From Candidatus Aminicenantes bacterium (lineage in GTDB: Bacteria > Acidobacteriota > Aminicenantia > Aminicenantales > UBA8522), in the NCBI GenBank assembly GCA_037444845.1, contig JBBILQ010000007.1, positions 6,067-70,066 of the forward strand: a DNA stretch of 64,000 nt, in the 5' to 3' direction. Below the pieces are notes generated by a model. The model made no database searches. It had not been told where the DNA came from and worked only from the letters and a program-made list of their open reading frames with translations. Shown piece after piece: positions 1 through 55,548 of the stretch; within the stretch, counting starts at the first letter, position 1, and every line of letters begins with the position of its first letter. Both the position numbers and the translations under genes were made by a program.

Positions 1-635
1 CTCCGTATCAGACGGTGATTTATTTCCCTGGCCAGACTTCTGCGGAAACAGAATCGAGTCAAAATCTGGCAGACCATTTCGATTTTAGAAATCTCTCATT
101 CCTTGTACGCAATGGCCGGGCGGCCGTTTTTCCCGTTTATAAAGGGACATTCGAACGGAAGTTGACGACTTCCTTCGCCGTCGATTCCTTCCAATTAGTC
201 GAGCAACGCATTCAACAGGTGAAGGATTTCAGGAGGTCTGTCGATTATCTCGAGACGCGTCCTGATATCGACACCGGTAAGCTCGCCTTTCTGGGCAATA
301 GTTGGGGCGGTCGCATGGCGCCTCTCATCCTCGCCGTGGAGGACCGCCTGCAAACGGGCATCGTGCTCATTGGTGGCTTGGAAACGGGCCGCAGGCCAGA
401 GGTCAATAATTCAGGTTACGTCAGGCGAGTGAAAATCCCTGTCCTGATGCTCAGCGGCCGGTACGATATGGCCTTCCCTTACGAGACATCCTCCAAGCCA
501 ATGTTCGATCTTTTGGGGACTTCGGCGAAGGAGAAGGTTCAAAAAGTTTACGAAACAGACCATTTCCTTCCCTTGAACGAGCAAATCAAAGAAACCCTGG
601 CCTGGCTCGATAAGTATCTCGGGCCAGTGAGATGA
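1..635 (+). CDS. C-terminal alpha/beta-hydrolase (dienelactone hydrolase/S9-like) domain, 5' part outside window
   Basis: Frame is open from the window edge (PYQTVIYFPG). Nucleophile elbow GNSWGG, Asp in GRYD and His in ETDH. Confidence 0.8.
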   Translation, partial: PYQTVIYFPGQTSAETESSQNLADHFDFRNLSFLVRNGRAAVFPVYKGTFERKLTTSFAVDSFQLVEQRIQQVKDFRRSVDYLETRPDIDTGKLAFLGNSWGGRMAPLILAVEDRLQTGIVLIGGLETGRRPEVNNSGYVRRVKIPVLMLSGRYDMAFPYETSSKPMFDLLGTSAKEKVQKVYETDHFLPLNEQIKETLAWLDKYLGPVR

Positions 636-793: not shown

Positions 794-905
794 ACAAAAG
801 GTTTTTGTTGCCCTGTCAATAATTCATAGCATGTTTGATGTTTCTTTTAGGGGGCTCCGGCATAAACGCGCATTTGCTTCCCGGTTTGGGTTAAAATGGA
901 ACTAA

Positions 906-1059
906 CCTGATCTATTCACAAAATGATACGATAAAACGCCCCCTCCCCTGGCGGGAGGGGATAGAGGGGAGGGGGAATCTTTGAATGATCCCCCTCACCC
1001 CGACCCTCTCCCACATGGGGAGAGGGGATTTTTTCCTTTCATTTCGTGAATAGTCCAGG
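906..1059 (+). mobile_element. 154-bp MITE copy 1 (IS1380-like ends)
   Basis: Imperfect TIRs CCTGATCTATTCACAAAATGA / TCATTTCGTGAATAGTCCAGG; CTAA duplicated at 902-905 and 1060-1063; identical to copies at 27134 and 55056. Confidence 0.92.
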
Positions 1060-1089
1060 CTAATATAAGCGAAATAAACAATGTGACAT

Positions 1090-1139
1090 CACCCCCACCC
1101 TTACCCTCCCCCTTGAGGGGGAGGATGGAGGTGGGGGGT
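1090..1139. repeat. GC-rich REP-like palindrome
   Basis: CCCCCACCCTTACCCTCCCCC-TTGA-GGGGGAGG...GGTGGGGGG hairpin, same family as the palindromes inside the MITE. Confidence 0.6.
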
Positions 1140-1170: not shown

Positions 1171-1725
1171 ATGATCGGTTATCCCAGCAATGTCCTGGTC
1201 GTGGCAGACTACGAGAATCCTCATTTCACGGAGAAATTCCAGAAGAGGGTGGACTTTGTCCTCTCCTGCGGGGATGTGGAATTCGCCATCCTCGAAGAGA
1301 TCTATGGACGCTTCAACAAGCCCATCTTCGCCGTCAAGGGGAATCATGACACCAGGAAGCCCTTTCCCCCTTTCGTCCAGGACATCCATCTGCGGATGGT
1401 GCAGCATCGCAACTGGCTCATCGGCGGGTTTGCCGGCGTTCCGGCTTTCAAGGAGGCCGGAACTTTCGAATGGGACGATTTGGCAGCCACCGACAAGCTC
1501 GGCAAATTTCCCTGCGTGGACATTTTTATCTGCCACGCTCCGCTTCTCAAAATCACCGACAAGGATGATTATGCCCACACCGGAAGCGAAGCCCTGCGCC
1601 GGTATGCCGAGGAAAAACAGCCCAAGTACATCTACCACGGACACGTCCACGCCAAGATGGGCGCCATGCTCGGCGAGACCGCCGTGGTGAGCGTTTACGG
1701 AGCGGAAATATTTACCCTGGGCTGA
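1171..1725 (+). CDS. Metallophosphoesterase (calcineurin-like)
   Basis: Motifs VAD, CGD, GNHD, CHAP and HGHVH. Confidence 0.85.
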   Translation: MIGYPSNVLVVADYENPHFTEKFQKRVDFVLSCGDVEFAILEEIYGRFNKPIFAVKGNHDTRKPFPPFVQDIHLRMVQHRNWLIGGFAGVPAFKEAGTFEWDDLAATDKLGKFPCVDIFICHAPLLKITDKDDYAHTGSEALRRYAEEKQPKYIYHGHVHAKMGAMLGETAVVSVYGAEIFTLG

Positions 1726-26469: not shown

Positions 26470-26898
26470 CTATTTCTCAGGCAGGATGAACTCGTAGTCG
26501 ACGAGGCAGTTATAGCTGTTGGAATAAACGAGAACGGCGTCGGGGCTTGTTCTGCCGATGCACAACCGATATGTTTTTCCGGGGATGAACTTTATCCCTT
26601 TTTTGGCTTTCATCTTGACCGAGTAAGCGTTTGTTGCCCCCAACCTGACCGTGGGAAACCACCCCTCCGCAATCGGCGCCTCCCCATCCAGGACGAGATG
26701 ATAGAGGTGAGACTCCATGAATTCCACCCTGATCTGGAATTCAATTTCATCTGGCGAGGAACGAATGACCCCGAAATACTCGCTTGGGGGTTGAGCGCCG
26801 CGGTAAAAACGCATTTTGCTCTTCTGCGGAGAAGCGCAGGATACGATAAGGACTCCCGCAGTTATCAAAACAAATATTTTTAATTTGATATGCCCCAT
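26470..26898 (-). CDS. Hypothetical lipoprotein
   Basis: ATG after GAGG; lipobox IVS-C. Confidence 0.6.
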   Translation of the reverse strand: MGHIKLKIFVLITAGVLIVSCASPQKSKMRFYRGAQPPSEYFGVIRSSPDEIEFQIRVEFMESHLYHLVLDGEAPIAEGWFPTVRLGATNAYSVKMKAKKGIKFIPGKTYRLCIGRTSPDAVLVYSNSYNCLVDYEFILPEK

Positions 26899-27133
26899 GT
26901 TTTCCTCTTTGTCTTTTATTATGCAAAAAAACGCCCGGCTTTCAAGACAGAGACAAGAATACCGGGATGACAGAAGAAGAGTTTTTCTCACTCCGGAAGC
27001 GCTTCACCGTTCGCTTCTCGGCGGCGATCTCCGGCCGGCTTTAAACAGATTTGTCGAAGATTCGCGGCTTCAAGGAAATCGAGTATAAAGCGATTGCCAA
27101 GGAACTGGGACAAAGAGGAGTGGTGACTACTAA

Positions 27134-27287
27134 CCTGGACTATTCACGAAATGAAAGGAAAAAATCCCCTCTCCCCATGTGGGAGAGGGTCGGGGTGAGG
27201 GGGATCATTCAAAGATTCCCCCTCCCCTCTATCCCCTCCCGCCAGGGGAGGGGGCGTTTTATCGTATCATTTTGTGAATAGATCAGG
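27134..27287 (-). mobile_element. 154-bp MITE copy 2 (inverted)
   Basis: Reverse complement of copy 1; CTAA duplicated at 27130-27133 and 27288-27291. Confidence 0.92.
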
Positions 27288-28439
27288 CTAATAGAAAATA
27301 AGATAGTCTCCCTTTTCCATGATTTTCTCTGGAGCTCTGTCCCCATATTCAATCATGACAGATAAGACCGTTACGCGGGGCTGGGTGGCCGGGATATAAA
27401 TGCGGTCGAGATGAATGACTTCGCCGGGCGATGAGAAAGCGGCCGGCCCGACCGATCCGCCGAAGTGGTCGCTCCTGCCAAAGGCGATGTGAAGGCCAAG
27501 CTTCTCGTCGAGGAGGATTTCGCCGATCGGTTGGAGGCCGAAATCAGCCAGCACTCCGAACCCGAGCTCGGCCATGTTCCCGTAAGCCGGTTCCCGTTTG
27601 AGATGGTCTGCCTCTGCCCTGGCTTGCGTTCCATCCCCTTGAACAGAGAAGGCTCTATTTTCCTTGATGTGGAAGAGCACAAGCTCCTGATTAACCTCCA
27701 CCGGCAGCGTTCCTTCTGTCCGGCTGGGCTCGGATCTTTCGCCTTCATAGGGGACGATGTAGGCTTCGCCGCTGGGCAGGTTGCCAGCCGTGGCCTTGTC
27801 GCGGAAACGGCCGTTGCTCGCGTGCGCGGTTCGCCAGCGAAGGTCGAATGTCATGCGATATTCCTTGCGGCCGTCCACAGCAAAACGGATTTCCGCGGCT
27901 TCCGCGCTGTCGAGCTTTTCTTTGAGCAACAAAACCCTGCGGCTTACTTCGTTGTAATCGATCCGGAGCGCGGGAATCATGGCGGGTGTAAACCCGGGCA
28001 TGGTGGCAGCCCTGAAGCCATGCTTTTTGGCGGCGTTCTTGAGGGGAGCTGTCGTCGAATACTCTGTCGGTGCCAGGAAGAGCTGCATGTCTTTAAATAT
28101 GTCCTCAAAGAGAAGCTGATCACCACACCAACTCAGGGCTTCCGCCACAGCGGGCAGAGGGGTTTCAACGAGAGTGGCCTGGGCTGGCAGGTCGGCGTTA
28201 TTCGAGCCTGTGTCAGGATAGGCGATGAGTTTCACCGTGTCGATGGGGATCTCAGCCGAATGTTTTTTAAGGGTTTTAAACCACTCCGATGCGAGCTTCC
28301 GCCTTTCCTTCCAGGCCGTGTTGTCGTTTTCTGGGCGGCGCGGGATATCAATAAGAATAGCGAGGCACCGGTCACCCGGATGGCGCGGAAAAACAGACCG
28401 GACCAGGCTGACGAGTTCAGCGGCTTTTAGCGTTGCCAT
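27288..28439 (-). CDS. M29/aminopeptidase T-like metallopeptidase
   Basis: GNLPSGEAY, AELGFG, LLDEK, HIAFG and HLD motifs. Confidence 0.7.
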   Translation of the reverse strand: MATLKAAELVSLVRSVFPRHPGDRCLAILIDIPRRPENDNTAWKERRKLASEWFKTLKKHSAEIPIDTVKLIAYPDTGSNNADLPAQATLVETPLPAVAEALSWCGDQLLFEDIFKDMQLFLAPTEYSTTAPLKNAAKKHGFRAATMPGFTPAMIPALRIDYNEVSRRVLLLKEKLDSAEAAEIRFAVDGRKEYRMTFDLRWRTAHASNGRFRDKATAGNLPSGEAYIVPYEGERSEPSRTEGTLPVEVNQELVLFHIKENRAFSVQGDGTQARAEADHLKREPAYGNMAELGFGVLADFGLQPIGEILLDEKLGLHIAFGRSDHFGGSVGPAAFSSPGEVIHLDRIYIPATQPRVTVLSVMIEYGDRAPEKIMEKGDYLIFY

Positions 28440-54816: not shown

Positions 54817-55055
54817 CTCCAAAACCTCCTTTCCGAATAGCGCCAGGAGGCAGTAATTCCTCAGGGTGCTTATATGATAATTAAGTCGCAAAGATTTTTC
54901 AAAAAAAGAAAGACGGAGACGGGCTTAAGGGCGGACCGTCCCCGTTAACTGTCGGCAATTCCGGGGCAAGACGAAAGGAAATGCTAAATGCGCGGAGGGT
55001 ACCTGAGTTCCTGGAACAATATCCAGAACTCAGTCCCTAGTGTCCCGTCTCATAA

Positions 55056-55209
55056 CCTGATCTATTCACAAAATGATACGATAAAACGCCCCCTCCCCTG
55101 GCGGGAGGGGATAGAGGGGAGGGGGAATCTTTGAATGATCCCCCTCACCCCGACCCTCTCCCACATGGGGAGAGGGGATTTTTTCCTTTCATTTCGTGAA
55201 TAGTCCAGG
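55056..55209 (+). mobile_element. 154-bp MITE copy 3
   Basis: Identical to copy 1; ATAA duplicated at 55052-55055 and 55210-55213. Confidence 0.92.
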
Positions 55210-55253
55210 ATAAATACCTTTCCAAAGTCATGCGCCAAGACGGGACACTTCCA

Positions 55254-55340
55254 TGGGGGAGTCAAGCTCCCCCCTCGGCGCTTCGCTTCACTCCGCTGAC
55301 CCCCTGAGGGGAACGACGCCGTCCCCCTCAAACTCCCCCG
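55254..55340. repeat. GC-rich palindromic element
   Basis: GGGGGAG-TCAAG-CTCCCCC and TGAGGGGAACG-ACGC-CGTCCCCTCA hairpins. Confidence 0.5.
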
Positions 55341-55548
55341 CGGTGGCGCGTCTTTGGTGATCGCAATTTATGTGATGTTATTTGTGAGACGCACCACTTG
55401 CTGCCGGGGGAGCTCGATCGTGCCGTCGAGCTGAATGGCAAGAAGAGTGACAATTTGCATGCCCAGGGTTTTTGTTTTATAGATGTCCAAGTCCTCCGGA
55501 AGCCTAACCCCATTGTCCCGGACTGAAAGAAGCCGGAGAAGTCTCGGG

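Follow-up and report, generated by a model that had tools for sequence, protein, structure and literature searches.

The window, that is, the whole stretch of 64,000 nucleotides analyzed from a Candidatus Aminicenantes genome, contains three copies of a 154-bp element. The first copy is located between a hydrolase-like open reading frame (ORF) and a metallophosphoesterase ORF, the second adjoins an ORF of 383 amino acids, and the third is nested in another repeat. The positions of all features are listed in Table 1.

Table 1. Copies of the 154-bp MITE in the 64,000-nucleotide window, with their parts and neighboring features
Feature	Position	Strand	Remarks
Hydrolase-like ORF	15..635		Neighbor of MITE copy 1
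MITE copy 1	906..1059	+	154 bp, intergenic
Copy 1, left target duplication	902..905	+	CTAA
Copy 1, right target duplication	1060..1063	+	CTAA
Copy 1, left terminal inverted repeat	906..926	+	18-19/21 identical to the right end of IS1380-family elements from same-family genomes
Copy 1, right terminal inverted repeat	1039..1059	-	18/21 identical to the left one; at most 15-16/21 to IS1380 ends
TM1 in copy 1	940..973	+	Pyrimidine strand, Watson-Crick purine strand and exact mirror third strand; 8 triplets
TM2 in copy 1	992..1026	-	Exact match to the TMECO/BoxC consensus (PMC4666352); 9 triplets; inverted with respect to TM1
Free-standing TM-like hairpin	1090..1139	.	No IS ends; separated from the right-hand copy 1 duplication by 26 bases; outside the MITE
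Metallophosphoesterase ORF	1171..1725		Neighbor of MITE copy 1
MITE copy 2	27134..27287	-	
Copy 2, target duplication	27130..27133	+	CTAA on the + strand (TTAG in element orientation)
Copy 2, target duplication	27288..27291	+	CTAA on the + strand (TTAG in element orientation)
Host repeat of copy 3	55041..55396	+	MITE-like family of about 198 bp; CTAG on the left, CTTG on the right; split by copy 3
MITE copy 3	55056..55209	+	Nested in the second repeat family
Copy 3, left target duplication	55052..55055	+	ATAA
Copy 3, right target duplication	55210..55213	+	ATAA; uninterrupted host repeats have a single ATAA here

The initial annotation of this DNA had described three identical copies of a MITE, bounded by imperfect terminal inverted repeats (TIRs) of about 21 bp and by the 4-bp duplications CTAA, CTAA and ATAA. 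All of this was confirmed, since the three copies are 100% identical across their 154 bp and 18 of the first 21 bases of the two ends match each other. The annotation had also assigned no coding capacity to the element and had classified it as non-autonomous, in agreement with its length, the lack of a transposase and a longest internal ORF in copy 1 of only 34 amino acids. A scan of the whole window against Rfam gave no family at the gathering score. The predicted fold of the MITE as single-stranded DNA (-40.7 kcal/mol) consists of a long outer stem that encloses three hairpins. The 383-amino-acid ORF next to copy 2 (27288-28439, minus strand) keeps its stop because the stop codon is located within the duplicated target. 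Neither this ORF nor the one of 173 amino acids beside the same copy (26470-26991, minus strand) had a match in Pfam or NCBIfam.

The initial reading was nevertheless incomplete, as it missed both the nesting of copy 3 and the nature of the interior. Positions 35 to 121 of the element are an inverted pair of BoxC/TM motifs, here termed TM1 and TM2. On the minus strand, TM2 corresponds exactly to the TMECO consensus CCCTCNCCC N3-6 GGGNGAGGG N3 GGGNGAGGG, and one of its triplets has a T for an A. TM1 misses the strict consensus but possesses a pyrimidine strand, a purine strand and a mirror third strand. Judged from sequence, the geometry of both motifs is of the triplex type. An intrastrand triplex has been shown only for TMECO and in vitro, and is unsupported in vivo (PMC4666352). 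Caulobacter CIR had been considered as the identity of the interior and was replaced by BoxC/TM after the match to the TMECO consensus. TM-like motifs without IS ends also occur elsewhere in the genome (C35:15599-15643 and C65:8635-10512). These free motifs, including the one at 1090-1139 of the window, are fused or clustered, with one hairpin and a third strand on both sides.

The prediction of a high copy number across the genome, made from the window, proved correct. The genome (2.75 Mb in 115 contigs, 54% GC) contains 63 full copies of the MITE and another 39 ends that are cut by contig breaks. The full copies comprise 8 variants: 27 are identical to the window copy, 13 differ from it by one base, 14 are of a 140-bp form without 14 bases in the third-strand region of TM1, and 9 are others. 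A stem mismatch in TM2 was present in 13 of the 63 copies. In addition, seven or so degenerate, older copies were detected.

A perfect 4-bp duplication flanks 57 of the 63 full copies, and in none of them does it extend to 5 bp, whereas in 5000 shuffles of the flanks the mean number of matching pairs was 8.1 and the maximum 19. The duplicated targets include 15 different tetramers. YTAR accounts for 40 and NTAN for 51 of the 57, compared to 0.47% and 2.6%, respectively, of the genomic tetramers. The target had been given as (C/A)TAA, which holds for the window copies but is too narrow for the genome, where YTAR prevails.

Copy 3 permitted an empty-site comparison. The uninterrupted 27-nt site of its host repeat is found exactly 7 times in the genome, each time with a single ATAA, and one uninterrupted host repeat, on C49, agrees with that of copy 3 at each of the 189 bases right of the insertion (100% identity). 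The duplication at copy 3 is thus 4 bp long and the insertion recent. Together with the 27 copies identical to the window copy, this bears out the recent activity proposed in the initial annotation. It had also suggested a search for empty sites in the reads; no empty allele was present among the Logan contigs of 4 runs, and it was the host repeat that provided the empty-site form, at the 7 places mentioned. Members of this second family measure about 198 bp, contain inner hairpins and have CTAG as their target. Across the genome there are about 16 long matches, besides many more that lie at contig ends; an uninterrupted example is located at C49:20545-20733.

The insertions avoid genes. Only 8 of the 63 sites are inside ORFs of at least 150 amino acids (control mean, 44.5) and 1 of the 63 inside ORFs of at least 250 amino acids (control mean, 38.2). 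Copies landing in genes may mostly have been purged. The single copy in the latter category (C1:35605-35758) interrupts a frame of 499 amino acids. Targeting of stop codons was also considered and is unsupported: it would apply to 7 of the 63 copies, and the controls averaged 3.3 and reached up to 12.

The ends of IS1380-family elements begin with CC(T/C)G..T(A/T)TTCA, and their insertion generates AT-rich duplications of 4-5 bp. On these grounds the MITE ends had been called IS1380-like, and a search for a transposase of the DDE type with the same TIRs had been proposed as a check. No intact IS1380 transposase is present in this assembly of 115 contigs, which breaks at repeats, and the search of this genome with PF13701 returned one sub-threshold match. 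With the transposase of a relative as the query, two IS1380 remnants (C14 and C66) were found that share 83-92% DNA identity with the clade. No cluster of contig ends of this genome carries IS1380 ends. On the other hand, 9 of the 19 other genomes of the bacterial family have a PF13701 match above the cut-off, and one of them (G009) contains a full IS1380 element of 1618 bp (L029), whose protein scores 403.9 bits with NF033539 (cut-off, 180) and 535.5 with PF13701. The right end of this element matches the left end of the MITE at 18 of 21 positions, and that of a second element (L032) at 19 of 21, so the assignment of the ends to IS1380 was upheld by the relatives. The left end of the MITE is closer to the right end (IRR) of the nearest IS1380 elements than to their left end (18 versus 14-15 of 21). 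As a separate observation, the remnant at C14:41670-41907 (L001) is internally deleted and is located about 80 bases from a MITE copy.

The comparison was extended to a set of 80 IS1380 loci, namely, L029 and 79 metagenomic loci, representing the best 80 of 544 confirmed stretches; 53 distinct elements among them had both ends and flanks. The mean identity of their ends with those of the MITE was 12.6-14.4 of 21, and the clade and the MITE have in common the end motif CC(T/C)G..(A/T)ATTCA(C/T)(A/G)A. Of the flanking tetramers in this clade, 93 of 106 were YTAR. Perfect 4-bp duplications were observed at 17 of the 53 elements, all of them YTAR, and 5-bp duplications at none. As 10.3 matching pairs were expected from shuffled flanks (P about 0.015), duplication by the autonomous elements is weakly shown. 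Matching flanks were seen in 7 of 14 elements with long flanks and in 10 of 39 with a short one; the flanks of L029 itself are unmatched. Chimeric assembly of multi-copy elements could be the cause of unmatched flanks. In run X1, from which this DNA may originate, IS1380 pieces of this clade had a depth of 27-57, compared to 7.7 for unique MITE flank; this agrees with an element in several copies that the assembly lacks, but the pieces could also stem from another organism.

The motif pair inside the MITE has a counterpart around genes for DUF559 (PF04480), a Vsr-like putative endonuclease. The only DUF559 gene of this genome (C18:38825 region) is bracketed by the same two TM halves. We inspected 87 DUF559 loci, consisting of that of this genome, the best 80 of 226 from a collection of genome contigs (genome_contigs), and 6 from the bacterial family; according to the record titles, they belong to Proteobacteria, Patescibacteria, Omnitrophota, Chloroflexi and others. 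By a stem test, 62 of the 87 genes have a pyrimidine-rich hairpin upstream, 70 have one downstream and 53 have both. The corresponding numbers for a relaxed TM pattern were 62, 64 and 52, against 1/87 and 3/87 in control windows, and the strict TMECO consensus was found in only 6/87 and 4/87 flanks. None of the 87 cassettes is enclosed by IS1380-type ends, so that the proposed precursor, a DUF559 cassette with such ends, is unseen in this set. A plasmid search with the DUF559 protein yielded 45 records, all with less than 60% identity. Three other genomes of the bacterial family (L132, L134 and L135) had weak DUF559 matches in frames of 1584-1758 amino acids, which are probably large fusion proteins. 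A further element, one end of which begins with GAGA(C/T)TGTGTC, interrupts a TM hairpin, either in its loop or in an arm, at four loci, two of them in the MITE and two upstream of DUF559 (L011, L025 in G008, L128 in G015 and L131 in G018); it may target TM hairpins.

Among relatives, 13 of the 19 further genomes in the family gave a DNA match to the MITE, in many cases to TM pieces only. Full-length forms with both ends and 74-83% identity are present in G001, G005 and G012, and degenerate ones in G015 and G016. In the genomes searched, we detected the MITE in this one bacterial family only: a DNA search of 21 genomes from eight other families of the order gave no match, and the composite pattern of ends plus TM had no hit in 300 other genomes of the phylum (a sample without other family members) or in viral contigs. 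Three variants of 190-203 bp in G012 (L223-L225) have an extra C-rich/G-rich hairpin inside TM1.

A different picture was obtained for G007, another genome of the family. There, the same end motif surrounds an unrelated interior of 181-185 bp (6 of the 8 regions fetched), and a bare shell of 75 bp with this end motif is also present. The interior of the six full elements (L216-L221) is GC-rich and folded, and their flanks are YTAR-like, none being perfectly duplicated. As these ends enclose other cargo or none, they do not need the TM pair.

Taken together, we consider it probable that the element is a young, high-copy MITE that is likely moved in trans by an IS1380 transposase, and that its TM pair was likely captured from a DUF559 cassette without its gene and travels as a passenger. 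In the general mechanism of DDE enzymes, the transposase binds both ends and cuts the target with a stagger, and repair of the gaps makes the duplication. An IS1380-family enzyme acting in trans would bind the two ends of the MITE and insert it at YTAR-like sites, with a stagger of 4 bases that would be converted by repair into the observed duplication. Mobilization in trans, already suggested in the initial annotation, is something that we infer, since no intact transposase is present in the assembly, from which an active copy may have been lost as a collapsed repeat. A single capture, in an ancestor of the bacterial family, would have placed a gene-less TM pair between IS1380-type ends. Enzymes of the IS1380 family are described as carrying neighboring DNA with the help of IR-like sequences (PMC9330008). 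A passenger role is likely because the same ends surround other cargo in a relative.

We next weigh the readings that depart from this one. It is possible, though rather unlikely, that IS1380 moves the MITE and the TM pair is a working part of it, either because its fold into hairpins or a triplex aids synapsis or excision, because it shields the host through termination of transcription in both directions, or because the DUF559 protein of the host binds to it. In an alignment of 19 family members (20 with one near-duplicate left out), the TM blocks were best conserved, with values of 0.92-0.94 compared to 0.85 for the ends and 0.64-0.76 for the spacers, and a neutral passenger does not predict blocks conserved above the ends. 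These sequences, however, were hand-picked, are of low complexity and were mostly found by BLAST through their similarity to the element, and for this reason the conservation is a lead and not proof of selection. The whole element is predicted to fold more stably than 200 shuffled versions (z = -6.2), both outer hairpins are followed by T-runs that face outwards, and this genome has one DUF559 gene with matching flanks. Against a transcriptional role, the promoter and terminator scan of the MITE was not above shuffles (2 terminator-like sites versus 1.1 ± 1.1), and PIT elements had no promoter or terminator activity in earlier work cited by PMC4666352. The 14 copies with a shortened TM1, the 13 with a mismatch in the TM2 stem and the G007 elements further argue against the pair as a working part.

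A related proposal, which we hold to be doubtful, is that two unrelated selfish systems have fused and that both still work. The TM pair would then be the cis-acting end structure of a widespread, undescribed DUF559-nuclease element, whose form without the gene was captured by IS1380 ends early in the bacterial family and kept intact, because the fold or the host DUF559 protein acting on it would raise the spread or the tolerance of the hybrid. If true, the MITE would document how BoxC/TM repeats can be carried about and could readily serve as a substrate for finding the role of DUF559.

Returning to IS1380 as the likely source of mobility, a different DDE family might instead move the MITE, its likeness to IS1380 ends being incidental. 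Targets of the YTAR or TA type are also preferred by IS5, IS701 and IS630, so that YTAR is not unique to IS1380. The IS1380 member IS1247, moreover, is tabled with a repeat of 5 bp (PMC3281130), as opposed to the 4 bp at the MITE. We judge this possibility very unlikely, as the end motif and the YTAR flanks go together with the IS1380 clade, the empty site gives a duplication of 4 bp and not 2, and none of the five PF01609 transposase loci of this genome, considered as a source, has a MITE-like end of 14/21 or more.

Even less probable is a scenario in which the whole 154-bp unit is spread by the DUF559 nuclease through its action on the TM pair, with the outer repeats as flanks that are carried along. 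The interior does equal a DUF559 cassette minus its gene, and the genome has an intact DUF559 gene and no intact IS1380 gene. However, the boundaries of all 63 copies coincide precisely with the IS-like ends, outside of which the 4-bp duplications are situated; the DUF559 cassette of this genome and its free TM motifs are without IS-like ends; and G012, which is 93% complete, contains many copies of the MITE and no DUF559 match.

The reads were inspected as Logan contigs, which drop rare variants and count as bridging a junction when they enter the element by 31 bases. No contig bridged a junction by this rule; one extends from unique flank into copy 2 by 25 bases, and the other flank of this copy was not covered among the records shown. 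In run X1, the contigs of the MITE core had a depth of 582-663 compared to 7.7 for unique flank, a ratio of about 76- to 86-fold that is not a copy number but is close to 63 + 39/2. A contig of run X6 contains the whole MITE with 0 differences. That the identical copies are an assembly artefact, with one consensus repeat pasted between unrelated flanks, is hardly conceivable, because, despite the 39 ends at contig breaks, a few mosaic copies at contig ends, the 6 of 63 copies with unmatched flanks and the lack of a formally bridged junction, random joining cannot account for 57 site-specific duplications of 15 different tetramers, and the depth in X1 and the intact element in X6 also speak against it.

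In an uncultured bacterium, a new MITE family is nothing unusual, and it is the cargo that lifts the interest of the present one. BoxC/TM repeats were already known in the 1990s, and we know of no explained route for their spread. One such route is plain from the MITE: enclosed by IS1380 ends, the repeats hitch-hiked some 80 times within a single small genome. BoxC in E. coli is not explained by the MITE. Since DUF559 genes from many phyla are bracketed by this motif pair, the MITE is a compact and naturally amplified substrate for testing both the nuclease and the IS1380 transposase. Our literature search, in which subscription journals were covered to a small extent, returned no paper on an IS1380 MITE with TM cargo and none on TM-flanked DUF559 genes, and the text available from a 2024 review of MITEs does not contain the terms IS1380, BoxC or triplex (PMC10969869).

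The element combines features of several known systems. With the IS1380 family (NF033539, PF13701; IS1247, ISPme1, ISEcp1), and in particular with the clade of about 1.6-1.8 kb, it shares the end motif, the YTAR-type flanks (40/57 versus 93/106) and, probably, the 4-bp duplication, and its left end matches the right ends of L029 and L032 at 18-19 of 21 positions, so that it is a derivative of the family by ends and target; unlike these elements, it has no transposase and a length of 154 bp. DUF559 cassettes have the same two inward-facing half-motifs in the same orientation, whereas the MITE has a 13-base spacer in place of the gene, and its pair is enclosed by IS ends. Because the gene is absent, the MITE is not a DUF559 cassette but at most a gene-less derivative of one.

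Inverted pairing as in the MITE is known for BoxC/PIT/TMECO motifs from 5 sites in E. coli MG1655, and the study of Holder et al. 2015 (PMC4666352) found no link of TMECO to transposons, phages or plasmids. The pair described here differs in being the cargo of an active transposon, which has spread at least 126 TM motifs (63 copies with two each, TM1 being shortened in the 140-bp form). Caulobacter CIRs, compared by description only, resemble the interior in being two-armed inverted repeats of about 110 bp, but are listed without TIRs in a review (PMC2229807), whereas the MITE has TIRs. The spacer of the window copy includes one GANTC site, which is found in the MITE copies of this genome and is not kept in relatives.

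Finally, the element is short, non-coding, bounded by TIRs, flanked by target duplications at 57 of 63 sites, and dispersed in high copy number, and by each of these features is a MITE. The prokaryotic MITEs RUP, Correia/NEMIS and ERIC (Delihas 2008, PMC2229807) are likewise short, TIR-bounded, non-coding and intergenic, with a target duplication, a stable fold and presumed mobilization by a related IS. The present element differs from these three in the transposase family with which it is associated and in its cargo, which comes from an unrelated repeat system.
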